Source: Candidatus Bathyarchaeia archaeon (GTDB taxonomy: Archaea; Thermoproteota; Bathyarchaeia; Bathyarchaeales; Bathycorpusculaceae). From it: DNA of 45,753 nt. Below, piece after piece: positions 31,262-45,753 of this stretch. The stretch spans positions 1-45,753 of the forward strand of contig JBGQME010000016.1 of NCBI GenBank assembly GCA_041500425.1, given 5' to 3'. The translations under genes were made by a program, and so were the position numbers. Numbering within the stretch: the first letter of the stretch is position 1; each line of letters opens with the position of its first letter. A model generated the notes under the pieces. The model saw only the letters and a list, made by a program, of their open reading frames with translations, searched no databases and was not told the DNA's origin.

Positions 31262-31325
31262 GCCCGTAGTCTAGGCTGTACTCAGACTAGAGTGGAGATA
31301 TCACCCGCAACTCCTTCTTTTTTGG
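31262..31325 (+). repeat. tRNA-Arg 5'-like fragment plus the conserved GGAGATATCACCCGC motif upstream of beta-helix paralog 1.
   Basis: GGCCCGTAGTCTAGGCTG matches the first 18 nt of tRNA-Arg (GGGCCCGTAGTCTAGTCTGG). It is followed by TACTCAGACTAGAGTGGAGATATCACCCGC. The homologous copy lies at 35845..35900. Confidence 0.5.
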
Positions 31326-31467
31326 CTTTGACTCCTACATTTAAGCAATGGCAAATCCATGCGCGCGCTATGAAAGGAAGGTCTGAAGCCTTTCTTGCGG
31401 TTGTTGTTCGTTTTGTCTATTAGAAGATTCTTTCAGAAACGTTATTTAGTGGTTGAACTGATTATAG

Positions 31468-31704
31468 TTGGGGGAGAGGGAATTGTTGAACAAGGTTATT
31501 TCTTGGGCAATGCTCGCGATGCTTCTTGCTGCGGGCTTGGTTTTGGTTCTTAAGACACCGGTAGTCAAAGCGACTGATACCATCTATATTAGGGCTGACG
31601 GCTCAATAGACCCACCCACAGCACCAATGCAACAAAATGCGAACAATCACACTTTGGCCAGTGATGGTTTCACATTGCAAGGTTCAGAAGGAAAGGAGAA
31701 ATGA
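31468..31704 (+). CDS. Small secreted protein, or an N-terminal remnant of a beta-helix/dockerin paralog (signal peptide plus the TIYIRADGSIDPPTAP motif).
   Basis: 78 aa. It has a hydrophobic signal-like N-terminus and the same TIYIRADGSIDPPTAP motif that opens the paralog at 36155. The TGA overlaps the ATG of the next ORF (ATGA). Confidence 0.4.
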   Translation: MGERELLNKVISWAMLAMLLAAGLVLVLKTPVVKATDTIYIRADGSIDPPTAPMQQNANNHTLASDGFTLQGSEGKEK

Positions 31705-34490
31705 TTGGGAAAGCCGCATCGGTAATGATGTGCGTATCGCTGCTAATAAGCATGCTAACCATTGCATTAGACATAAAACCAGTTGAAGCGAACCCAGCAA
31801 TTATTAATGTGCCCGAAGACTGCTCAACCATACAGGCAGCCATAAATACGGCAAATCTAGGAGATACAATTAATGTATCTTCAGGAACATACCGTGAGAA
31901 CGTGGTTCTGAACAAGACAGTTTCGCTCATCGGGGAGAACAAGCACAACACTGTTATTGATGGAAGCGGCACTGGAAACGTGATTAATGTAACAGCTAAC
32001 GACGTCAGCATAAGCGGCTTCACGATAAGAAACAGTGGGACATTATCATGGGTCGATTGCGGTATCCATGTTTACTACCAAAGCTATGGTAACAACATAA
32101 GCGACAACATTTTGACAAATAACTCAGTAGGAGTTTTCCTCGACGGTAGCAGGAACAATGCCCTTGCTAATAACTATGCCGAATCAAACTGGCCCATAGA
32201 TATTTGCCTCTTCTGTTCCGATAACAATGTCCTTGCTGGTAACGATGTCAAGTCAATCGGTATGGGTGGTTCTAACAATAATATTCTGATTGGCAACAAC
32301 GCTTCTTCAAACATCGGCGGGATCGGAATTCAAGCGGGCGGCTTCAATAACACTTATATTAACAACACTGCGTCAAACAACCGGATAGGAATTCGTCTCT
32401 CAGGTTGCAACAATGTCCTTATGGGTAATAACGTCTCATTCAACGACGAGGCTGGAATACACCTCATGACTGAGCCAAATCCGGAAACGCCATGCGAACA
32501 CAACATTCTTATTGGGAACATAGCCTCAAACACCCTCTCAGTATGGGGTGACGGAATCCGTGTCGATTTTTGCAACAACAACACCATTACTAATAACGTC
32601 GTTTCCTCAAACAACGGTTATGGAATTGACCTATCCGGTTCCAGTAATGACACCATCACCAACAACACCATTTTATTGAACAACCAAGCTGGGATCAGGC
32701 TCGGCACTTATGGAGAAGCTGTAAATGATAGATACTTCAGCAAAAACAACACCCTTATCGGAAATACTATTTCCTCAAACTATTATTATGGGATCTTGCT
32801 TGAACGTTCTAACGGTAACAAGGTTTTCCACAACGAGTTCATCAATAATATGGCTGTTCAAGCAATCTCAGCCTCACCTGAGTATGTAAACACATGGGAT
32901 GATGGTTACCCTTCTGGCGGCAACTATTGGAGCGACTATACTGGCGCGGACTTGTACAGTGGTCTTTATCAAAATGAGATAGGTCATGATGGAATAGGCG
33001 ACACACCATACGTTATCGATTCAAACAACCAAGATAATTATCCGCTTGTGAAGCCTTGGGAATTCATTGGCAATGAGACTATCTACATTAGGGCAGATGG
33101 AAGCGTTTATCCTTCAGGTGCTCCAGTCCATCGAGAGGAAGACCTCTACGCCTTGACTGACAGCATCACCAGTGACGCTGATGGAATCGTCGTTGAGAGG
33201 AATGATATTATATTCGATGGTGGAGGCTATAGTATTCAGGGATATGGAGTCGGAAACGGCTTTAGCTTGTTTGGCATACACAACTTCACCCTCGAGAACA
33301 CGAACATCCAAAGCTTCATGAATGGTACGTGCCTAGTTTCTTCTTCGAATAACACCATAATACGGAACAACATAACAGACACCTTGATGGGATTTTTCCT
33401 CAGTTCTTCTTTCAACAACACGCTTTCTGGAAACAATGTGACAGCGAACGTGGGATACGGAGTCTGGGGTATCAGTTCTTCATACAACGATGTGAGTGAG
33501 AACATCATAGCAACAAAAGACAGAATCTATTCCGGCATCGCTTTCTGCTCGTCTTCGAACAACACTATGATGTCAAACGATGTAACCGGCAACTCTGAGG
33601 GCATTCGGCTTGAAGGTTCTTCAAACTGCAGCATTGTTGGGAACAGCATAACAGCAAATGCAGTTGGCATCCAACTTTCTGATTCTTCAGACTCAAACAT
33701 TTTCTTCGAAAACAGCATAGTAGACAACTCATTCGGGATTCGGTTCATTTCATTACCCGATTCCTTGCCATGTTCTGGCAACAAGTTCTATCACAACAAC
33801 CTTGCAAACAACGCACAGCAGGTCGAACTATCTACGTCGAGCGCAATCGCAACCGTTTGGGATGATGGTTATCCTAGTGGCGGAAACTACTGGAGCGACT
33901 ACAATGGTGCAGACTTGCACAATGGGCCTCACCAGGACGTGACTGGCAGCGACGGTGTTGGAGACACACCCTATGTCATTGATGGAGTTAATCAAGACAA
34001 CTATCCATTCATGAGTCTGAACGGGTGGCTAACCTATCCGATATCAACTGAAAGCAACGTCACAATAACCGATATGAGGGCTGACGAATACTCTCTAAAC
34101 TTTACAGCCTCCGGCCCTATAGGGGAGACGGGCTACGTCAACGCCACTGTGCCAGTGGGACTTAACGCCACCGACATCACAGTATTCGTAGACGACGTTC
34201 AACCGAGCCCACCATTTCCAACAATCACCTCTAACGGCACACACTACTTCGTCTACTTCGAATTCACCCTCAGCACCCACGACATTAGCATACAGTATAA
34301 ACGCACAATTCTAGGCGACGTAAATGCAGACGGTGTCGTTGACAGCACCGATCTTGGCATACTAGGCAGTGCATGGGGCTCCTTCAAAGGTGATCCAAAC
34401 TACATTTCAGAAGCAGACATCAACGAAGACAGCGTAGTAGACTCAAGCGATCTAGGCATTATGGGCGCCCACTGGGGCGAAACCGAATAA
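31701..34490 (+). CDS. Large secreted right-handed parallel beta-helix (NosD/PbH1-repeat) protein with a C-terminal dockerin domain.
   Basis: 929 aa. It has a signal peptide and the beta-helix N-cap IINVPEDCSTIQAAINTANLGDTINVSSGTYRENVVL. It contains dozens of NN..xGN imperfect about 22-aa repeats. The module YPSGGNYWSDY.GADL...GDTPYVID..NQDNYP appears twice. The C-terminus GDVNADGVVDSTDLGIL...ADINEDSVVDSSDLGIMGAHWGETE is dockerin-type Ca-binding repeats. Confidence 0.85.
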   Translation: MIGKAASVMMCVSLLISMLTIALDIKPVEANPAIINVPEDCSTIQAAINTANLGDTINVSSGTYRENVVLNKTVSLIGENKHNTVIDGSGTGNVINVTANDVSISGFTIRNSGTLSWVDCGIHVYYQSYGNNISDNILTNNSVGVFLDGSRNNALANNYAESNWPIDICLFCSDNNVLAGNDVKSIGMGGSNNNILIGNNASSNIGGIGIQAGGFNNTYINNTASNNRIGIRLSGCNNVLMGNNVSFNDEAGIHLMTEPNPETPCEHNILIGNIASNTLSVWGDGIRVDFCNNNTITNNVVSSNNGYGIDLSGSSNDTITNNTILLNNQAGIRLGTYGEAVNDRYFSKNNTLIGNTISSNYYYGILLERSNGNKVFHNEFINNMAVQAISASPEYVNTWDDGYPSGGNYWSDYTGADLYSGLYQNEIGHDGIGDTPYVIDSNNQDNYPLVKPWEFIGNETIYIRADGSVYPSGAPVHREEDLYALTDSITSDADGIVVERNDIIFDGGGYSIQGYGVGNGFSLFGIHNFTLENTNIQSFMNGTCLVSSSNNTIIRNNITDTLMGFFLSSSFNNTLSGNNVTANVGYGVWGISSSYNDVSENIIATKDRIYSGIAFCSSSNNTMMSNDVTGNSEGIRLEGSSNCSIVGNSITANAVGIQLSDSSDSNIFFENSIVDNSFGIRFISLPDSLPCSGNKFYHNNLANNAQQVELSTSSAIATVWDDGYPSGGNYWSDYNGADLHNGPHQDVTGSDGVGDTPYVIDGVNQDNYPFMSLNGWLTYPISTESNVTITDMRADEYSLNFTASGPIGETGYVNATVPVGLNATDITVFVDDVQPSPPFPTITSNGTHYFVYFEFTLSTHDISIQYKRTILGDVNADGVVDSTDLGILGSAWGSFKGDPNYISEADINEDSVVDSSDLGIMGAHWGETE

Positions 34491-34509
34491 CCCCGAACAC
34501 GTCCTGAAT

Positions 34510-34815
34510 TCACGGCTTCTGCCAGAACAGGTAGACTTTCGTCTGCAACAGAAAGCCACAGGTTTTGATGAGCGTTGCCAGTTGCTCAACGCTGGCGTTC
34601 CTCACCTTCTTATCATAGAGCTTTGTGTCCCCGTAGGGCATGCCACCGACGAAGACTTTGAAAAACCGTGGATGCTTGTACTTAATCAACGCAGTTCTGA
34701 CAGCTTTCTCCTCTGTAGGCCTAAACTCCCCAAGCTTCCTCATAACGTAGCTGTGGCTGCCGAGCAGTTCAAGATTAAATCCGAGCCCTTTGAGAATATC
34801 TGCGAGCTTCAGCAC
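34510..34815 (-). CDS. HicA/YcfA-like small protein (GSH motif), paralog 1.
   Basis: 101 aa. LKGLGFNLELLGSHSYV resembles the HicA motif L..GF....R.GSH..Y. The C-terminus ...VEQLATLIKTCGF is like the HicA tail. It is about 90% identical to 38181..38468. Confidence 0.4.
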   Translation of the reverse strand: MLKLADILKGLGFNLELLGSHSYVMRKLGEFRPTEEKAVRTALIKYKHPRFFKVFVGGMPYGDTKLYDKKVRNASVEQLATLIKTCGFLLQTKVYLFWQKP

Positions 34816-34975
34816 CTGCTGGATCGGCGTCTGCTCAGCGCGCGCTTAGTGCACCTCGTGGAACTCGGCTTCTAATACGTGACAGGTGAGTACGATGACG
34901 GCGGAAAGCTGTTTAAGAAGAAAAAGCTGTTATATCTCGGCTCGCAGACCTCAGAAGGGTAGTAGTCCAGGTGAA

Positions 34976-35087
34976 AGGGCCCGTAGTCTAGTCTGGATAC
35001 CAGTGTCCTCCTCACTTTTTCCAGAGGTTTGGATTAGGACACTGGCCTGCGGAGCCGGAGATCCTGGGTTCAAATCCCAGCGGGCCC
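34976..35087 (+). tRNA. tRNA-Arg (anticodon GCG) with a roughly 37-nt non-canonical intron in the D-loop.
   Basis: The 112-nt locus folds as acceptor GGGCCCG/CGGGCCC (discriminator G), D-stem GTCT/GGAC, anticodon stem CTGGC/GCCGG, anticodon loop C-U-GCG-G-A, variable loop AGATC, T-arm CTGGG-TTCAAAT-CCCAG. The D-loop is 47 nt, against 8-11 normally. It contains a 10-bp inverted repeat CCAGTGTCCT...AGGACACTGG. UGGAU is duplicated at both exon junction candidates. Confidence 0.75.
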
Positions 35088-35118
35088 GCTACTCTATGCT
35101 TTTCTACGTTCTTTTCTC

Positions 35119-35484
35119 TTGAAAATCAGTCAATACGGATACCCCCATTATGGTTTTCAGATCGTTGGATTTCAGCTTCGTTGTAAAGTCTTAAGTGTCA
35201 TCAATGGGCATTTTGTGTCTGGGTTGTCGCTGATGAGTGCTGTGGCGTTTGATGGAACTGAGGTTTTGCTCACCGAGGAGAGGTGGAAACATATTGTTTT
35301 GAGGCATCCGGAGTTGGAGGATAAATTGTCTTTGGTTGTGAATGCGGTTGCCAGCCCTGAAGTTTATCTTGATGCAGGTGGAGCGTTTCACGTTTTGAAA
35401 AGGCTTTCTAATGAAGTGTCTGATTATCTTGTGGTGATCTATTTCAAGGAACATGGAGAAGGCTATATAAGAACGGCTTACTAG
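35119..35484 (+). CDS. DUF4258-like putative toxin.
   Basis: The probable start is the internal Met (MSAVAFDGTEVLLTEERWKHIVLRHPE...). The H....RH motif and the size fit DUF4258. A DUF2283-like gene follows. Confidence 0.45.
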   Translation: MKISQYGYPHYGFQIVGFQLRCKVLSVINGHFVSGLSLMSAVAFDGTEVLLTEERWKHIVLRHPELEDKLSLVVNAVASPEVYLDAGGAFHVLKRLSNEVSDYLVVIYFKEHGEGYIRTAY

Positions 35485-35561
35485 ACGAGTCATGGAAGAA
35501 AAGTCAGGAGGTATAAGCTATTCAGAAGGTTAAGACCCTCCTAGATATTGATGTCAAAGAA

Positions 35562-35774
35562 GTGTTGGAAAGAATAGAGAAGAAATATCGTGTGAAGTTG
35601 CCACGTAAGGTTATTACTGTTGACTATGGCGACGATGTGGGCGATCTCTTCATTAGGTTTAAGCATGCGAAGACTAGTGAGGGTGAGCCGACTGGGGACG
35701 GGCAAGTGATATTGCATTATGATGAAGACAAGAACATAGTGGCGGTAGAAATTCTGAGCATTGCAGCTCTGTAA
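35562..35774 (+). CDS. DUF2283-like small protein (putative antitoxin partner).
   Basis: 70 aa. ITVDYGDDVGDLFIRF...VAVEIL matches the DUF2283 pattern (I.V.YD.EAD.LYI.F .... IVGIEIL). Confidence 0.5.
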   Translation: MLERIEKKYRVKLPRKVITVDYGDDVGDLFIRFKHAKTSEGEPTGDGQVILHYDEDKNIVAVEILSIAAL

Positions 35775-35844
35775 TCTTGATCTATTGAACTCTTCTATTA
35801 CGATAACCGTTTTTGTTGTGTCAGAGTCCTTGATCTAGGCTGGA

Positions 35845-35900
35845 CTCAGACTTCAGTGGCGATATCTCCCGCGTACCCCCTCTTTTTCTCTTATGCAGAA
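35845..35900 (+). repeat. Second copy of the motif (TCTAGGCTGGACTCAGACTTCAGTGGCGATATCTCCCGC) upstream of beta-helix paralog 2. A third partial copy (CAGTAGAGATATCACCC) is at 35973..35993.
   Basis: It aligns by eye to 31280..31320 with about 80% identity. Both lie about 200-300 nt upstream of the paralogous secreted-protein genes. Confidence 0.5.
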
Positions 35901-35944
35901 AAACTAGAATTTTCTTCTATGACCAGGCCCATGTTTATGCTCTG

Positions 35945-35990
35945 AAGCCGGGTGGGATTCGAACCCCCACCACAGTAGAGATATCACCCA
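35945..35990 (-). other. tRNA-like 3'-half fragment (T-arm GGGGGTTCGAATCCCACC plus acceptor-like tail) without a 5' partner; a pseudo-tRNA remnant.
   Basis: The reverse strand reads GGTGGGGGTTCGAATCCCACCCGGCTTCA. The T-loop consensus GTTCGAATC is perfect. No complementary 5' acceptor strand exists within 150 nt. It lies inside an insertion in the upstream region of the second beta-helix paralog. Confidence 0.3.
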
Positions 35991-36154
35991 AAGTCTAAAC
36001 TATTAGTCGACTTTTCTGCTAATCTGATATACCCAGTTAGAAGTAAGACGACTTTGAATGGAAGCGTTGTGAAGAGGTTGAGCACGCACCGTATAGCTTC
36101 TTACCACAAAGGATATCTAGTGGTTGAACCTATACTAAGACTGGGGGAAGGAAA

Positions 36155-38161
36155 TTGCCAAACAGAGTACTTCTTGGACCCTTGTTGGCACTCCTGTTTA
36201 GTAGCATGTTAGCAGGGACTTTTCACATTGAGCCCGTCAAAGCAAGCGGAACCATTTACATCAGGGCTGACGGAAGCATAGACCCCCCAACAGCACCAAT
36301 TTCGACCGTTGACAACGTTACCTACATCTTCATAGATAATATTAACGATTCCGTTGTTGTTGAGAGGGACAGCATAATAATAGATGGAAACAGCTCCACG
36401 CTTCAAGGAGACGGAACAGGTGTTGGGTTGGGTCTGGAAGGAAGACGAGGCATAACCGTCAAGAAAATAACCATCATAAATTTCTCGGTGGGCATCTACA
36501 TGTACAGCGAATATAGCTACTATGGTGTCTGCACCATAAGAGACAACACAATACTAAACTGCAATTGGGCAGGCATCGAGGTTGTTGGGTACAATAACAA
36601 CAACATAAGAGGCAACATCGTAACAAATACCCCTTATGGCATCTACCTAAGTGGATGTGATGGCAACATCGTAAGCAACAATTACATAAACGGCGGTGGC
36701 ATCTACTTGAACGGGGGAAGTGACAGCAATACTATAAGCTATAACAAGATAATGAACAGTGCTGACGGCATTATACTAATGGACAATTGTGGCAACAACA
36801 TCATAAGCTGCAACGACGTAGTAGATAGCTGGTTTTATGGCTTCTATGTATACTTATGTTTTAATAACATCATCTATCACAACAACATCATCAACAACGA
36901 TGTTCAGGTTTATAGTGAAGCTTCGGTCAACATTTGGGATGATGGGTATCCTTCTGGCGGAAACTACTGGAGCGACTATGCTGGCGTAGACTTTTACAGT
37001 GGTCCTTATCAGAATGAGACAGGCAGAGATGGAATAGGAGATACTCCATACATCATTGATGCAACCAATACAGACAGATATCCACTCCGGAATCCGTGGC
37101 CATTCAGAATAGTCGAAACAACCGTCAATATAGCAGGAACAAATTACACCATCCCAATAGAAAGTAACGCGGCAATAACCCATGCTGTTGCCACGAAAAG
37201 CGCTCTATACTTTAACACATCTGGCCCCACTGGAACAACAGGCTACATCAACATATCCTTCCCAATGGGCCTCAACAAAACCGAAATCAAAGTGTTCATT
37301 GACGGTGTGAAGCTCACGCCCCCTCCCTATCCAATAATCACCTCTAACGGAACACATTACTTCATTTATTTTGAGTCCACCCTAAGCGTTCACGACACGA
37401 TTGTGCAATACGCAATTGTTGACATAGCAACAACCAACGTCACACCACACAAAACAGTAGTAGGTCAAGGCTACTGCACATCCATTAACGTGACCGTTGA
37501 GAATCAAGGCAACTACACAGAAACGTTTAAAGTCTTCGCCTACTACGACGAGTTAGTTATCCCCACACCTTCACAGTGGGACACTTTCTGGAGCATGGGA
37601 GACGTAAACAGAGACGGCTTTATTGACATGGAAGACTACGCCTTATTAGAGGCTGCATGGGGTTCCTATCCTGGTCACCCAAGATGGGACCCACGTTGCG
37701 ACCTCAACCAAGACGGCCACGTAGGCCCAGTGGATTTGGGCATTTACGGCGCAAACTACGGCAGAAACATCTGGACATACTTCGGATTAGGAACACCCCC
37801 CATCGGAACAAAAATAGTTACCAACCTACCCAACGGAACTTCCACCACCATTACCTTCACATGGAACACTACAGGCTTTGCTAAGGGCAACTACACCATA
37901 AGCGCCTACGCTGAGCCTGTTCCAGGCGAAACCGACACAGAAGACAACCTGTTCACAGGCGGATTAGTCAAGATTGGCATTCCAGGCGACATAAACGGAG
38001 ACACTGTCGTTGATTCAACCGATCTAGGCATACTTGGCGGTGCATGGGGATCATACAAAGGAGACCTAATCTACAATCCGAATACTGATATCGATGGCGA
38101 TGGAGTAGTAGACTCAAGCGACTTAGGCATAATGGGCGCTCACTGGGGCGAAACAGAATAG
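36155..38161 (+). CDS. Secreted parallel beta-helix protein with a CARDB-like domain and two dockerin modules (paralog of 31701..34490).
   Basis: 668 aa. Signal peptide, TIYIRADGSIDPPTAP, beta-helix repeats, the YPSGGNYWSDYAGVDFYSG...GDTPYIID module, an Ig-like region, and a CARDB-like segment (NVTPHKTVVGQGYCTSINVTVENQGNYTETFKVFAYYD). Dockerin-like GDVNRDGFID...CDLNQDGHVGPVDLGI and GDINGDTVVDSTDLGIL...DIDGDGVVDSSDLGIMGAHWGETE follow. The last 16 aa are identical to the paralog. Confidence 0.85.
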   Translation: MPNRVLLGPLLALLFSSMLAGTFHIEPVKASGTIYIRADGSIDPPTAPISTVDNVTYIFIDNINDSVVVERDSIIIDGNSSTLQGDGTGVGLGLEGRRGITVKKITIINFSVGIYMYSEYSYYGVCTIRDNTILNCNWAGIEVVGYNNNNIRGNIVTNTPYGIYLSGCDGNIVSNNYINGGGIYLNGGSDSNTISYNKIMNSADGIILMDNCGNNIISCNDVVDSWFYGFYVYLCFNNIIYHNNIINNDVQVYSEASVNIWDDGYPSGGNYWSDYAGVDFYSGPYQNETGRDGIGDTPYIIDATNTDRYPLRNPWPFRIVETTVNIAGTNYTIPIESNAAITHAVATKSALYFNTSGPTGTTGYINISFPMGLNKTEIKVFIDGVKLTPPPYPIITSNGTHYFIYFESTLSVHDTIVQYAIVDIATTNVTPHKTVVGQGYCTSINVTVENQGNYTETFKVFAYYDELVIPTPSQWDTFWSMGDVNRDGFIDMEDYALLEAAWGSYPGHPRWDPRCDLNQDGHVGPVDLGIYGANYGRNIWTYFGLGTPPIGTKIVTNLPNGTSTTITFTWNTTGFAKGNYTISAYAEPVPGETDTEDNLFTGGLVKIGIPGDINGDTVVDSTDLGILGGAWGSYKGDLIYNPNTDIDGDGVVDSSDLGIMGAHWGETE

Positions 38162-38180
38162 CCTCGAACACGTGCTGAAT

Positions 38181-38468
38181 TCAAGGCTTCTGCCAGAACA
38201 GGTAGACTTTCGTCTGCAACAGAAAACCACACGTCTTAATCAGCGTCGCCAGCTGCTCAACGCTGGCGCCTCTCACTTTCTTATCGTAGAGCTTCGTGTC
38301 ACCGTAGGGCTTGCCGCCGACGAAGACTTTGAAGAACCGTGGATGCTTGTACTTTATCAACGCAGTTCTGACAGCCTTCTCCTCCTTAGGGCTGAGTTCA
38401 CGGAGCTTCCTGAGCACGTAGCTGTGGCTGCCGAGCAGTTCAAGATTGAAGCCGAGCCCTTCAAGCAT
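38181..38468 (-). CDS. HicA/YcfA-like small protein, paralog 2.
   Basis: 95 aa and about 90% identical to 34510..34815 at protein and DNA level. Its start overlaps the upstream HTH gene by 8 nt. Confidence 0.4.
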   Translation of the reverse strand: MLEGLGFNLELLGSHSYVLRKLRELSPKEEKAVRTALIKYKHPRFFKVFVGGKPYGDTKLYDKKVRGASVEQLATLIKTCGFLLQTKVYLFWQKP

Positions 38469-38733
38469 GCCTGCAAGCTCCTAGGGCAGCACTCAACCAT
38501 ATCATAACATTCTCAATGCTCGGCAGTTCCTTGGGCAAAACCTGAGAAGAAGAAGGCGGTTGATTCTTTTCACTGCCTACTTCTACTCGTAACCCAAGGC
38601 GCCGCATCTTATGATAGATCATGTCCTCATTCTTGCCCAGGACCTTCGCGATCACATCAATGTCTTTGCGCTTCTTGACAAGTTGAATGAGCGTGCGCTC
38701 CTCTTCCTTGGTCCACGGCTTACCCTTTGGCAC
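38461..38733 (-). CDS. Small Myb/SANT-like helix-turn-helix protein.
   Basis: 90 aa. WTKEEERTLIQLVKKRKDIDVIAKVLGKNEDMIYHKMRRLGL has the W..EE..L...V......IA..LG.....I..K...LG pattern of Myb-like HTH domains. It overlaps both neighbours. Confidence 0.5.
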   Translation of the reverse strand: MPKGKPWTKEEERTLIQLVKKRKDIDVIAKVLGKNEDMIYHKMRRLGLRVEVGSEKNQPPSSSQVLPKELPSIENVMIWLSAALGACRHA

Positions 38734-39319: not shown

Positions 39320-39500
39320 GTGTTATTACCGTACCCATGGTTTATGACGCGCATCTGCGCCATCCGCTTCGTCCGACGTCCACCGACGAGAAAGCTGTTC
39401 AGCAACAGCCTAGCTTCTGGCGTCAAAGGCTTTCTGCAGAACGAACGCTGGCAAACCTGGCCAACGAACTCGCCCGCTTCTTGCTTCCGTGCTGGACGCT

Positions 39501-40026: not shown

Positions 40027-41625
40027 GTGCACGACTTTTCCTATAAACAGATGGACTTGGGCATGAAGGGGACTAAGAGTTCAAGTGGTGCGAATCTTGG
40101 TTTTGAAGAGAAAATGTGGAAGGCAGCGGATAAGCTACGGAATAACATGGATGCTGCGGAGTACAAGCACGTTGTCTTGGGTCTCGTTTTCTTGAAGTAT
40201 ATTTCTGACGCGTTTGAAGAAGTGCACAACGAGTTATTGAATGATCCTGAAAAGCTGTCGGACCCCGAAGAGATTGATGAGTACAAAATGAGAAATGTTT
40301 TCTGGGTGCCGCCTGATGCGAGATGGGAACTGCTGCAAAAGAATGCGAAGCAGCCCAACATTGGTATTCTCGTGGATAATGCGATGGATGCGATAGAACG
40401 AGACAACAGTTCTCTGAAAGGTGTCTTGCCCAAGAATTATGGTCGCGAGGCCTTGGACAAACAGAGACTTGGGGAATTGATCGATTTAGTCGGCACCATC
40501 GGCTTAGGGGATAAGGAAAGCAGAAGCAAAGACATCCTCGGCAGAGTCTACGAATACTTTCTAGGGCAATTTGCGGATGCTGAAGGCAAGAAAGGCGGAC
40601 AATTCTACACGCCAAGAAGCATAGTCCAGCTGCTGGCAGCCATGATTGAGCCGTTCAAAGGGCGGGTTTTTGACCCCTGCTGTGGTTCTGGCGGGATGTT
40701 TATTCAAAGCGAGAAATTCGTTCAAGCCCACCAGGGCAGGTTAGACGACATAAACGTTTACGGTCAAGAGTCAAACCAGACAACATGGCGGCTGTGCAAG
40801 ATGAACTTGGCAATACGCCACATCGAGTCCAAGTTTGTAATATGGAATAACGAGGGAAGCTTCCTAAACGATGCCCACAAGGATTTGAAGGCAGATTATC
40901 TTCTTGCAAATCCGCCGTTTAATGATTCAGACTGGAAAGGCGAGTCGGTCAAAGAAGATATGCGGTGGAAATTTGGGGTTCCGCCTGTGGGAAACGCCAA
41001 CTTCGCATGGGTCCAACACTTCATACACCACCTCGCACCAAGAGGAATTGCCGGCTTCGTTCTCGCCAACGGCTCCATGAGTTCGAACACGTCAAACGAG
41101 GGCGAAATACGAAAAAACATAGTCGAAGCCGACCTCGTAGACTGCATGGTTGCCTTACCCTCGCAGTTATTCTACAATACCATGATTCCAGCCTGCCTAT
41201 GGTTCATAGCCAGAGACAAACAAAACAACAAATACAGAGACCGAAGAGGAGAGGTACTATTCATCGACGCAAGAAAACTTGGCATAATGGTGGACAGAAG
41301 GCACAGAAAACTGACTTTAGAAGACATCAAAAAGATTGCTGACACTTACCACTGTTGGAGAGGTGAACTCGTCGAAGGACAAAAAGTGGAGTATGCAGAT
41401 GTTCTTGGATTCTGCAAATCGGTCAAGCTTGGTGGAATCAGAAAACAAGGGCACATTTTGACTCCCGGCAGATACGTTGGCGCCGAGGAAGAAGAGGATG
41501 ATGGAGAAGAATTTGAGGAAAAGATGAAGCGATTCACGTCTGAGCTTGCGGCGCAGATAAACGAGGGAAACAGGCTTGATGAAGAAATAAAGAAGAATCT
41601 TGAGAAGATTGGGTATGGTCTTTGA
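40027..41625 (+). CDS. hsdM: Type I restriction-modification system methyltransferase subunit HsdM.
   Basis: N-terminal HsdM_N ([31 protein letters not shown]). SAM motif [11 protein letters not shown]. Catalytic NPPF ([11 protein letters not shown]). Confidence 0.95.
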
Positions 41626-42919
41626 AGAAAAGTCAAAATTCAAACAGACAGAAGTGGGAATAATTCCTGGAGAATGGACGGTAGAGCAGTTAAAAGATTT
41701 GTGTGTTGACATATCTTATGGGTACACAGCAAGCGCTACTGAAGAACCAATCGGTCCGAGATTTTTGAGGATTACGGATATAGTTCCATATTTTATTGAC
41801 TGGCGAACTGTTCCTTTCTGCAAAATAAGTGATTTGGATAGAGCCAAATATAGACTTGACAAGGGAGACATCGTAATAGCAAGAACTGGAGCTAATACAG
41901 GCGCTAACGCCACAATAAGGTTGCAGAAGGATGTTGTATTTGCCTCTTACTTGATTAGGTTTAAGATAAATCCTAAAGAAGTAGACCCTTTTTTCGTCGG
42001 ATATGTCCTGAAATCTAATTTATGGCAGAATTTTGTTTCCGGTATCCTAGGCGGTTCTGCGCAGCCTGGGGTGAACGCAAAACAACTTGGGTCTTTCAGT
42101 TTGCCAGTCCCGGCTCTTGCAGAGCAAAAAAGCATAGCGAAGATCTTTTTTGACATAGACTCAAGAATAGAGCTAAACCTGCGCATTAACAAAACCCTTG
42201 AAGCTATTAGTCAGGCTATTTTCAAGCGTTGGTTTGTTGATTTTGAATTTCCAAATGAAGAAGGCAAGCCCTACAAATCACACGATGGAAAAATGATGGA
42301 TTCAGAACTTGGCGAGATTCCAGCAGGATGGACTGTTGGCTGCTTGGGTGATATTGCCGATAATGTGAGAAATCCAGTCAAACCCGAGGATGCAGAGCCA
42401 GATACTCCATATATCGGACTTGAGCACATGCCACGAAAAAGCATTGGTCTGGCAGACTGGGGTCATGTAGAAGATGTGGGCAGCAACAAGTCTTCATTTC
42501 ACCGAAAAGACGTTCTTTTTGGAAAACTCCGCCCGTATTTTCACAAGGTGGGAGTTGCCCCCATCGATGGGATTTGTTCCACAGACATATTGGTTGTCAC
42601 TGCGAAACAACCTGAATTTCTCGGCATGGTTTTGTTTTATTTCGCAAGCGATGAACTTGTAAAATACGCAGATATGACTTCGTCTGGTACCAAAATGCCT
42701 AGGACAAGTTGGAGCGATCTTGCCCAATATAGAATATTGATTCCTTCAAAGGAAATTATGCGGGATTTTACGGGCATCATCTATCCAATGGTTGAGAAGA
42801 TTATTGGCAATGTGCTTCAATCCAAAACTCTTGTATCTATGCGTGATTCGCTTCTTCCCAAACTCATGTCTGGGAAAATCAGGGTCCCTGTTACGGAAGA
42901 AAAAGTGGAAGCATCATAA
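41600..42919 (+). CDS. hsdS: Type I restriction-modification specificity subunit HsdS (two target-recognition domains).
   Basis: 439 aa. Two TRD halves separated by conserved central and C-terminal helical repeats ([11 protein letters not shown]... / [11 protein letters not shown]). The start overlaps the hsdM end by 26 nt. Confidence 0.9.
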
Positions 42920-45753
42920 TGTCTAAAATCATGACTGAATCGGAAGTTGAAGAAGCTTGTCTTGCAATGCTCAGGGACGACCTTGGTTATGGTGTGGCTT
43001 TTGGTCCTGATATTTCTGAAGGAGGTCCGTTTGAAGAGAGAAAGTACAGTGAAGTTGTGCTTGTTAGCAGGTTGCGTGCTGCTCTCAGGCGGATAAACAG
43101 GTCTATTCCTGACAGTGCGATTGATGAGGCTGTAAGGAAGGTTCTGAGGACCGATAGCCAGAATTTTGTTGTTAATAATCAGTGTTTTCACAGCTTAGTC
43201 GTTAACGGGGTTCCAGTTCAGTACAAAAGGGCAGATGGAAGCATCAAGGACGAGATAGTGTGGCTGTTTGACTTCCATGACCTAAACAATAATGAGTTTT
43301 TGGCTGTTAACCAGTTCACTGTAATTGAGGAGCGCAACAACCGGCGCCCCGACATCATTTTGTTCGTCAACGGGTTGCCACTTGTGCTCATAGAACTGAA
43401 GAATCCTGCTGACGAGAACGCCACAATCTGGTCTGCTTTCAAGCAGTTTGAAACCTACCAAGAACAGATTCCTTCGATATTTAGGTTCAATGAAATCCTA
43501 GTCATAAGTGATGGGTTGGAAGCAAGAGCAGGAACCTTAACCTCAAAAGAAGAACGGTTCTCACCTTGGAAGACCATAAACACCAAGAAAATGCCCTCTT
43601 CCACGCCTCAGGTTGAAGTTCTGTTAAAAGGAATGCTGAGCAGAGATGCCCTGTTGGATTTGGTAAGACACTTTGTTGTATTCGAAGTCGACAAAGACAA
43701 AAAAGACGACAGCATGAAAATCTCCAAAAAAATCGCTGCATACCAACAATACAATGCCGTGAAAAAAGCCATCGGATCAACAGTCAACGCCACAAAGAAA
43801 GACAGGAAAGCCGGAATTGTTTGGCACACTCAAGGCTCAGGCAAAAGCCTAACAATGGTTTTCTACACAGGCAAGCTCGTTCTTGAGCCAGAGCTCGAAA
43901 ACCCAACCATTATAGTGTTAAACGACAGAAACGACCTAGACGACCAACTTTTCGGAACGTTCAGCAGATGCCAAGAATTGCTAAGACAGAAACCCGTTCA
44001 AGCTGAAACGCGAGAAAAACTGAAAGAACTGCTCCAAGTCTCATCAGGCGGGATAGTATTCACAACGATCCAAAAATTCTTTCCCGAAAGCGGAAGAGAA
44101 TACCCACTGTTATCAAACAGAAAGAACATCATCATCATCGCTGACGAAGCGCACAGAAGCCAATACGGATTCGGGCTCAAAGTCCCAAGAGATGTTGAAA
44201 AAACAGCACTCAAATATGGCTACGCAAAGTATGTGAGAGACGCGGTTCCTAACGCCACCTTTATTGGGTTTACGGGGACTCCGATAGAAAAAGCTGACAG
44301 AAGCACACCAGCGGTTTTTGGAAAATACGTCGATGTTTACGACGTGACACAAGCAGTTGAAGACGGATCCACAGTGAGGATTTTCTACGAAAGCCGCCTG
44401 GCAAAACTCGAACTGAAACCAGAAGAGAGACCGTACATCGACCTGGAATTCGAGGAAGTCACGGAAGGTGAAGAAGTAGAGAGCAAGGAACACCTGAAAA
44501 GCAAATGGTCCAGACTGGAAAAAGTCGTCGGAAGTGAAAAGAGAATCAAACGAATCGCCAAAGATATAATCACACACTGGGAAAACAGACTATCCATCCT
44601 CGACGGCAAAGCCATGATCGTCTGCATGAGCAGAAGAATATGCATAGAACTCCACAACGAGATAAAGAAGCTGAGACCAGAGTGGTATCACGAAGACGAC
44701 GACAGAGGAACCATGAAAGTAGTAATCACTGGTTCCGCAACTGATGGAGCGGCATGGCAAGAACACATTCGGAACAAAGAAAAAAGAAGAGCGCTCGGAG
44801 AACGAATGAAAGACCCCTCCGACCCAATGAGAATAGCCATTGTCAGAGACATGTGGCTCACAGGATTCGATGCCCCAAGCCTAAACACCATGTATCTAGA
44901 CAAGCCTATGACAGGCCATACACTGATGCAGGCAATAGCACGAGTCAACAGAGTCTTCAAAGACAAACCCGGCGGTCTAGTCGTTGACTACATCGGCATA
45001 GCCTACGACCTAAAGAAAGCATTATCTGAATACACAGAAGGCGACAAGAAAGAAACAGGCATCCCACAAGAAATAGCCATTGCCAAAATGCAAGAAAAAT
45101 ACGAAATAGTCTCAGCATTTTTCCACGGATTCAGCTATGAAAACTTCTTTTACGCAGAAACAACAGAAAAAATGACCATCATGAAGCAAGCAATGGAACA
45201 CGTCTTAACAAAAGAAAAAGGCAAAGAACGATACCTAAAAGAAGCCACCACGTTGGCATGGGCTTTTGCGCTCGCTGTACCACACGAAGACGCACTTAAA
45301 ATCAGAGACGACGTCGGCTTCTTCCAAGCCGTAAAAGCCGCAATAGTGAAAAACACCGAACCAAAAACATCCCAAAGAGACACCGTAGACTCCGCCATAA
45401 AACAGATACTCTCCAAAGCAATAATATCCGACAGAGTAATCGACGTCTTCGCCGCCGCTGGTCTGAAAAAACCAGACATATCCATATTATCGGAGGAATT
45501 CCTAGCCGAAGTAAAACACATGCCCCAGAAAAACTTGGCTTTCGAAATGCTTAAGAAACTGCTAAACGACGAGATCAGGTTCAGGCAGAAAAAGAACCTC
45601 ATCCAAGCAAGGTCATTCGAAGAGCTTTTGGACAAAGCCATCAAAGCCTACACGAACAAAAGCATCGAAGCAGCAGAAATCATCCAGCAACTAATTGAAC
45701 TCGCCCAAAAAATGCGAGAAGAACAAAACCGCGGCAAACAACTAAACCTAAAC
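42919..45753 (+). CDS. hsdR: Type I restriction enzyme R subunit HsdR; the 3' end lies beyond the window, so it is absent from the ORF track.
   Basis: The ATG at 42919 overlaps the hsdS TAA (TAATG). Hand translation gives [25 protein letters not shown]... The Walker A motif [15 protein letters not shown], the DEAH box [11 protein letters not shown], and helicase motif VI (QAIARVNR) are present. The frame is open through 45753. Confidence 0.9.

Follow-up and report, generated by a model that had tools for sequence, protein, structure and literature searches.

Dockerin and cohesin modules have been known from archaea since 1999, their binding has been shown and they are abundant in anaerobic methanotrophic (ANME) archaea (PMC9012536). 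To the extent that the non-cellulosomal dockerin proteins of archaea are treated in that paper (Archaeoglobus fulgidus, ANME-1/2; Peer et al. 2009 and Chadwick et al. 2022, via PMC9012536), they are secreted proteins other than cellulases, with a type-I-like C-terminal dockerin of two Ca loop-helix segments and a cohesin that is not encoded next door, and surface attachment or assembly is presumed for them. In 2026, NosD-like proteins with a signal peptide and a dockerin, lying outside any nos context and predicted to act in adhesion, were described from sediment viral contigs (PMC13452462, ISME J); these NosD-like/CASH proteins of sediment archaea and viruses are found near viral packaging genes, in the terminase region, with adhesion or glycan binding as the predicted function, and the same paper describes the His-Met-Met copper-binding motif of true NosD. 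Head-tailed (pro)viruses of Bathyarchaeia have also been documented, such as BATPV1 in genome JAAKEZ01, with tape-measure, tail and large-terminase genes, integrated in Bathyarchaeia chromosomes (PMC10848311; PMC11705971). Here we analyze a stretch of 45,753 nucleotides (nt) from a Candidatus Bathyarchaeia archaeon (contig JBGQME010000016.1; hereafter the window) that encodes two large secreted-type proteins, P1 and P2, each convergent with a small open reading frame (ORF).

The small gene convergent with each large one corresponds to the final ~95-110 codons of a viral ABC-ATPase + GNAT gene of ~500 amino acids (aa), and we estimate at about 0.7 the probability that the locus as a whole consists of ordinary Bathyarchaeia surface proteins flanked by relics of this provirus gene. 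With respect to the archaeal dockerin proteins covered in PMC9012536, the host is here a member of the Bathyarchaeia, the passenger is a NosD/PbH1 beta-helix and P2 has a second dockerin nested in a CARDB domain. The NosD-like/CASH proteins share with P1 and P2 the NosD domain without a nos operon, the signal peptide and the dockerin, but the viral genes of the window are only a decayed remnant; unlike the documented Bathyarchaeia proviruses, the window keeps only ~1.2 kb of such remnants. Four loci of the small-ORF family come from JAAKEZ01, the genome of BATPV1, and the ABC-ATPase + GNAT gene downstream of the large terminase (TerL), with its conserved 3' end, goes unmentioned in PMC10848311 and PMC11705971.

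Beta-helix and dockerin domains of P1 and P2

An earlier note, made from the letters of the window, had delimited the same two large ORFs, which are called identically in two public annotations. Their positions and those of their terminal dockerins are as follows.

31701..34490, plus strand: P1, 929 aa, with signal peptide, two NosD/PbH1 modules, beta-sandwich and C-terminal dockerin
34311..34487, plus strand: P1 dockerin (Pfam residues 871-920), with Ca-binding loops DVNADGVVDSTD and DINEDSVVDSSD and a helix after each
36155..38161, plus strand: P2, 668 aa, with signal peptide, one NosD beta-helix and cap, 9-strand beta-sandwich, CARDB and terminal dockerin
37982-38158, plus strand: P2 terminal dockerin, with loops DINGDTVVDSTD and DIDGDGVVDSSD

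The proposal that both are beta-helix proteins ending in dockerins was borne out by Pfam hidden Markov models, which gave NosD (P1 1.5e-67, P2 2.4e-20), Beta_helix (P1 1.8e-36, P2 7.9e-15) and Dockerin_1 in both proteins and CARDB (2.1e-5) in P2, and both thus match the profiles of the NosD/PbH1 right-handed parallel beta-helix (PF05048, PF13229). Read by eye, the two N-termini have K/R residues, a hydrophobic core and an AxA-like site (VEA/N in P1 and VKA/S in P2), and we read them, like the earlier note, as putative Sec signal peptides (31701-31790 and 36155-36244). P1 has the two-module form, each helix module closing with the same WDDGYPSGGNYWSDY cap (repeat D1). The TIYIRADGSIDPPTAP motif of the P2 N-terminus recurs inside P1 at about residue 471, which is the start of the second helix module.

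Dockerin_1 (PF00404, Pfam gathering threshold 22.9 bits) scored 36.5 bits (5.6e-9) in P1 and 57.3 bits, in two stretches, in P2. Both proteins have the duplicated segment of ~22 residues that defines a dockerin, in which a 12-residue loop DxNxDGxxDxxD is followed by a helix; the loop-helix pairs of P1 read DVNADGVVDSTD-LGILGSAWG and DINEDSVVDSSD-LGIMGAHWG, and residues 608-667 of P2 match the solved cellulosomal dockerin 2y3n_B (E 2e-6). With this canonical pair of Ca loops and helices the tails are true dockerins, as had been supposed, and the shared C-terminus reported previously amounts in our alignment to 18 identical final residues. The first P2 dockerin (~37601-37762) is nested in a loop of the CARDB domain (region ~37530-37780, residues ~460-540); a CARDB-nested dockerin is also found in the homologues P0161 and P0181, and CARDB is uninterrupted in P0158 and P0194.

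No gene of the window gave a Pfam cohesin match, in agreement with the earlier note, and neither P1 nor P2 has a C-terminal membrane anchor of its own. The beta-sandwich between helix and dockerin was considered as an internal cohesin and rejected, its fold being of a generic accessory or pilin-like type. Most likely, P1 and P2 would be exported through the Sec pathway, a glycan-binding or adhesive beta-helix would be their functional part, and the dockerins would hold them non-covalently and Ca-dependently on a cohesin protein whose gene lies outside the window.

At E<=1e-10, homologues of P2 number more than 6000, most of them on ordinary contigs of metagenome-assembled genomes (MAGs), under source names such as 'parallel beta-helix repeat protein' and 'NosD domain-containing protein [Candidatus Bathyarchaeia archaeon]'. 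NosD, Beta_helix and Dockerin_1 occur together, often with CARDB, in 46 of the 120 best P2 homologues. The proteins had been called giant and archaeal dockerin proteins rare; lengths of 929 and 668 aa are usual for the family, and rarity is contradicted both by these 46 homologues of the same architecture and by the papers that already cover the topic (PMC9012536, PMC13452462). Additionally, the window has no nos genes, that is, none of the nosZ/nosF/nosY context of true NosD, the copper chaperone of N2O reductase; the neighbours of P1 and P2 are instead lysS, a tRNA gene, a toxin-antitoxin (TA)-like pair and type I restriction-modification (R-M) genes. P1 and P2 are ordinary members of a known, uncharacterised kind of Bathyarchaeia surface protein, predicted to be glycan-binding or adhesin-like through a right-handed beta-helix of the NosD/CASH type.

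A viral gene end beside each dockerin gene

A repeat search and pairwise alignment revealed continuous DNA homology between ~34308-34840 and ~37979-38486, at ~82-88% identity. The repeated block of ~510 nt comprises the terminal dockerin, a 19-nt spacer and the small convergent ORF, and the two small ORFs are 91% identical in protein, close to the earlier figure of about 90%, and ~87% in DNA. These ORFs, called here relic 1 and relic 2, and the genes that accompany the second are listed below.

34510..34839, minus strand: relic 1, 3' terminal ~110 codons of the viral ABC-ATPase/GNAT gene, with the conserved 3' core at 34522-34560
38181..38480, minus strand: relic 2, 3' terminal ~95-99 codons of the same viral gene, with the core at 38193-38231
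38461..38733, minus strand: orf90, Myb-like helix-turn-helix (HTH) protein with a weak Pfam Myb match, phrog_323 at 3.4e-9 and matches on L074 and L103
38720..39319, minus strand: orf199, matching L074 at 3e-16, found in 15 genome loci and 29 viral loci, with a weak Csa3 match
39337..39417, minus strand: 30-codon remnant of the C-terminus of the gene for a viral 136/151-aa protein

The ORF of relic 1 (34510-34815) has a GTG start, and in-frame homology runs on upstream to a stop at ~34840. The ORF of relic 2 (38181-38468) begins with an ATG that overlaps the stop of orf90 by 8 nt, and its homology ends four codons upstream of this ATG, where the frame of orf90 takes over. Both small ORFs are coding on the minus strand, the differences between the copies falling 5/3/29 by codon position; because of this pattern, the antisense ORFs of the plus strand (34582-34875 and 38172-38507) were rejected as real genes.

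The small gene had been described as HicA-like, and it does recall a HicA toxin in its size and in a GSH-containing motif near the N-terminus, LGFxLxxxGSH, whose resemblance to the HicA N-terminus is superficial. However, neither copy, nor the homologues P0004 and P0005, matched HicA_toxin or any other Pfam family at E<=10, a further homologue (P0007) gave only a sub-threshold RRP36 match in Pfam (E 0.074), and nothing was found for the small ORF in NCBIfam, PHROGs or PADLOC. No HicB antitoxin gene adjoins the small ORFs, whose neighbours are the dockerin gene plus orf90 or the tRNA gene. Furthermore, the AlphaFold model of the 95-aa ORF is a confident compact domain of five helices (pLDDT 81), all-helical and so different from the dsRBD-like alpha/beta fold of HicA, and none of its structural neighbours accounts for the domain. 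Since the sequence can be shown to be the C-terminal part of a 500-aa ABC/GNAT protein, and hence belongs by homology to a different family, it is extremely improbable that each dockerin protein is functionally coupled to a toxin gene of the HicA type. The label 'rRNA pseudouridine-1189 N-methylase Emg1 (Nep1/Mra1 family)' on the 95-aa homologue P0001 (JGI 3300035688) has no profile support and was discarded.

The source of the domain was apparent from a profile search over 1.8 billion representatives, which returned 570 relatives of the small ORF. In the long relatives (245-508 aa) the small-ORF domain is C-terminal and follows an ABC-type ATPase, a GNAT-like domain and a KYNPFAEKAGM motif. 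Forty-three viral contigs of IMG/VR carry the family, 41 of them with a full-length gene (~480-510 aa, ~60% identity among them) that is often the last on its contig, and all 55 loci of the family in genomes are labelled Bathyarchaeia or Bathyarchaeota. The large terminase lies directly upstream of the ABC/GNAT gene (phrog_2 6e-29; 7296-8840 of contig L083), genes further upstream match tape-measure and tail PHROGs, and the full-length protein itself matches the phage 'ABC transporter' PHROGs 293, 11143 and 886. When the L083 gene was compared with the window by tblastn, it matched at 1e-27 (relic 1, to 34839) and 3e-24. The window copies cover only residues ~375-490 of the viral protein, the last ~95-110 codons per site, and tblastn found no ATPase, GNAT or terminase pieces left in the window; the copies are therefore fragments and not functional members of the viral ABC-ATPase + GNAT family.

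The genes upstream of relic 2 point to the same virus group, in which the conserved order is a 136/151-aa protein, a ~85-115-aa protein, a ~147-aa HTH protein, TerL and ABC/GNAT. In this regard, orf90 corresponds by homology to the first 90 aa of the ~147-aa protein whose gene directly precedes that of the large terminase, the first ~70 aa of orf199 are homologous to the ~85-115-aa protein, with a C-terminal part that resembles a winged helix-turn-helix, and the 30-codon remnant, 57% identical to the viral 136/151-aa protein over 30 aa (E 2e-4), is the outermost part of the provirus remnant that could be detected. Because copy 2 thus retains the viral order and strand (136-aa remnant, orf199, orf90 and relic, with TerL absent), the interval 39417-38181 is best read as one end of a decayed head-tailed provirus from which TerL and the greater part of the ABC/GNAT gene have disappeared. 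At this site the provirus would have decayed, the terminase and the ATPase/GNAT part would have been deleted and the relic left at its end. Copy 1 has no synteny with the virus at all: relic 1 is an isolated 3' fragment abutting an intron-containing tRNA-Arg gene, beside which only this fragment would have survived.

Finally, the earlier note had regarded the dockerin genes as locked to the small gene, and this proved too strong, as the closest relics elsewhere (92% and 84% identical; loci L003-L006) adjoin a convergent DinB gene and not a dockerin gene. Loci L003-L006 keep, despite the DinB neighbour, the 19-nt spacer and ~14 nt of the last codons of the dockerin gene (..ETE*). A relic in locus L051 is oriented convergently with the gene for a CARDB + dockerin protein, and the full-length viral gene that stands at a provirus end in L031 is two genes away from a convergent gene for a NosD + dockerin protein of 1017 aa. 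The pairing of relic and dockerin gene is not obligatory and is most probably a product of how the locus arose, not of a function in common, and a weak association of NosD-like genes with the viral gene end remains.

History of the repeated block and the viral gene end

The earlier note had concluded that the segment was duplicated as a unit. The dockerin/small-ORF block does occur twice, but a unit duplication is doubtful. Synonymous divergence (dS) is 0.61 between the window relics and 0.35 between copy 1 and the relic of L003, which belongs to another genome. Moreover, alignment of L003 (1327-1650) with window 38145-38468 and 34474-34797 gave copy-2-like sites at nt 1-93 and 295-314 and copy-1-like sites at nt 135-285, a pattern by which the L003 relic appears as a clear recombinant mosaic of the window copies. 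As copy 1 is nearer to L003 than to copy 2 and the sites are mosaic, a single clean recent tandem duplication fits the data poorly. Where the residue is identical, the codons differ in 45% of cases in the bodies of the P genes, compared with 37% for the terminal dockerin and 27% for the relic.

Several findings weigh against reading the small ORFs as relics whose pairing with the dockerin genes is historical. The ratio of nonsynonymous to synonymous divergence (dN/dS) is 0.08 between the two window relics (0.07-0.08 when copy 2 is compared with copy 1 or L003), which is unexpected for a dead relic. At least four contexts retain an intact 95-aa ORF with a conserved ATG that overlaps the preceding ORF by 8 nt; its start is the same among the window, L003, L004 and L005. 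Of the 55 Bathyarchaeia loci, 5 have a NosD-like gene within 3 kb of the gene end and none has one at 3-10 kb (binomial P ~0.002 counting blocks, ~0.01 counting loci), and because of this clustering the neighbourhood of NosD-like genes and the viral gene end may not be purely accidental. Furthermore, no integrase or defined att (attachment) site was found in the window.

Together with the confident five-helix model, the first three of these observations would also suit a domesticated, stand-alone helical domain from the viral protein, co-transcribed with orf90 and retained beside the surface-protein genes for an action on them or their regulation. We consider such a domestication rather unlikely. 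For the L003 and L004 relics, which are orthologous, the dN/dS ratio is higher, at 0.38, indicating relaxed constraint; the L051 relic is frameshifted, and relics elsewhere are of variable length, some being mere fragments of 15 to 66 codons; the upstream HTH ORF of L003-L005 lacks its N-terminal part, with homology only from orf90 residue 23; copy 1 lacks an upstream partner, and its sole start codon is a GTG that follows an in-frame stop; and the closest relics, as noted above, have DinB for a neighbour. In view of the dS values and the mosaic pattern, the low dN/dS ratio seems best explained by divergence in functional viral genes of a recombining pool, followed by separate acquisition or gene conversion.

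The 3' end of the viral gene deserves attention of its own. DNA conservation over its last 45-60 nt, which encode CGFLLQTKVYLFW, greatly exceeds that of the remaining gene, and second copies of this gene end are found beyond inserts of 2.6-6.5 kb in L009, L071, L056, L052 and L078. The insert of L071 (7928-10861) is a type II R-M system (N6_N4_Mtase + BglII-like), and that of L078 encodes a 1442-aa NOV_C protein, with the second gene-end copy inverted. The viral ABC/GNAT gene behaves at its 3' end like a boundary for recombination; as a boundary for recombination and insertion, this end would repeatedly have been brought beside the 3' ends of NosD-like surface-protein genes. Integration and cargo hot spots can regenerate the 3' end of their target gene, as at tRNA-gene att sites and the defence-cargo hot spots of phages. 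The present gene end resembles these in that a short conserved 3' end is repeated directly beyond variable inserts (R-M, NOV_C, TA-like), and differs from them in that the target is a viral protein-coding gene, that the repeat spans 15 to ~110 codons and that the inserts bracketed by repeated gene ends hold no integrase, only R-M systems, sensor kinases, NOV_C proteins and genes of unknown function. Because no integrase was found in the inserts, the likeness to att sites stays an analogy.

A bolder proposal is that the conserved ABC/GNAT 3' end is a dedicated hot spot that swaps cargo (NosD-dockerin adhesins, R-M, NOV_C-type and TA-like genes), that the window relics are footprints of successive cassette insertions and that the dockerin surface proteins are delivered or mobilised by viruses and remodel the host surface; we judge this unlikely. 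The narrower version, in which the beta-helix/dockerin genes are virus-delivered moron adhesins sitting as cassettes at this hot spot, with relics bracketing successive cassettes, is in our opinion very unlikely. The minus-strand order of the window would fit it (provirus remnant; relic 2; P2, the TA-like pair and the tRNA gene; relic 1; P1), as would the second gene-end copies after the inserts of L071, L009, L056 and L078, the clustering of NosD-like genes within 3 kb, the L031 provirus end with its convergent NosD + dockerin gene, and the signal-peptide and dockerin-bearing NosD-like genes near terminases on sediment viral contigs (PMC13452462). Nevertheless, a P1/P2 homologue lies within 10 kb of the family gene in 0 of the 43 IMG/VR loci of the matching virus group, and for this reason P1 and P2 look host-encoded. 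The large family to which they belong resides mostly on ordinary MAG contigs, the repeat here is ~300-500 nt long and reaches into the dockerin, compared with copies of 45-60 nt elsewhere, no insert has an integrase, and the bodies of the P genes have diverged as much as the block or more (45% versus 27-37% of codons differing). Host surface-protein genes beside decayed viral sequence remain the reading that we prefer.

Surrounding genes and implications

The left flank of the window consists of housekeeping genes (thermosome, ribosomal proteins, eIF2-gamma and class I lysyl-tRNA synthetase), and the segment with the two modules is bounded by lysS (end 31214) and hsdM (start 40027). Three further features lie within it.

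31468..31704, plus strand: 78-aa ORF with signal peptide and TIYIRADGSIDPPTAP motif, its stop overlapping the P1 start (ATGA)
34977..35089, plus strand: tRNA-Arg(GCG) gene, its D-loop interrupted by a 35-nt intron, adjoining relic 1 upstream at the truncated 5' end of the latter
35119..35774, plus strand: 121-aa ORF followed by a DUF2283 protein (DUF2283 6.7e-6), between the two modules

The 78-aa ORF is the truncated N-terminus of a third beta-helix paralogue, and positions 31564-31628 within it are 78% identical to 36236-36300 of the P2 N-terminus (repeat D5). The tRNA-Arg(GCG) gene was missed by ARAGORN on the raw DNA and called cleanly after removal of the 35 nt, with only a partial Rfam match (29 bits). 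The 121-aa ORF and the DUF2283 gene are a TA-like pair, the sole such pair in the segment, and the 121-aa ORF had no match in Pfam, PHROGs or PADLOC. At ~35820-35990 on the minus strand, a piece similar to the T-arm and 3' acceptor of a tRNA precedes by ~85 nt a second one that looks like the 5' half of a tRNA, and GGGNGATATC stands before each. ARAGORN, with introns allowed, and Rfam called no gene there; the two pieces may represent a tRNA in permuted or split form, a pseudo-tRNA or what is left of an att site. Lastly, a type I R-M operon (hsdM, hsdS, hsdR; 40027-45753, plus strand) begins directly past the provirus remnant and runs to the end of the window, and distant homologues of hsdM and hsdS (22-26% identity) are also present on viral contig L083.

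If P1 and P2 are indeed ordinary surface proteins flanked by provirus relics, they add two more NosD-dockerin proteins to a family of thousands in sediment archaea, and a false toxin-antitoxin annotation is removed. The recurrent small conserved gene of Bathyarchaeia would then be a fragment of a viral ABC-ATPase/GNAT gene, usable as a marker for provirus ends and decayed proviruses. In addition, the repeated gene end and its proximity to NosD-like adhesins offer a testable lead on how archaeal viruses and surface-adhesion genes may be linked, a question that PMC13452462 raised from viral contigs alone.

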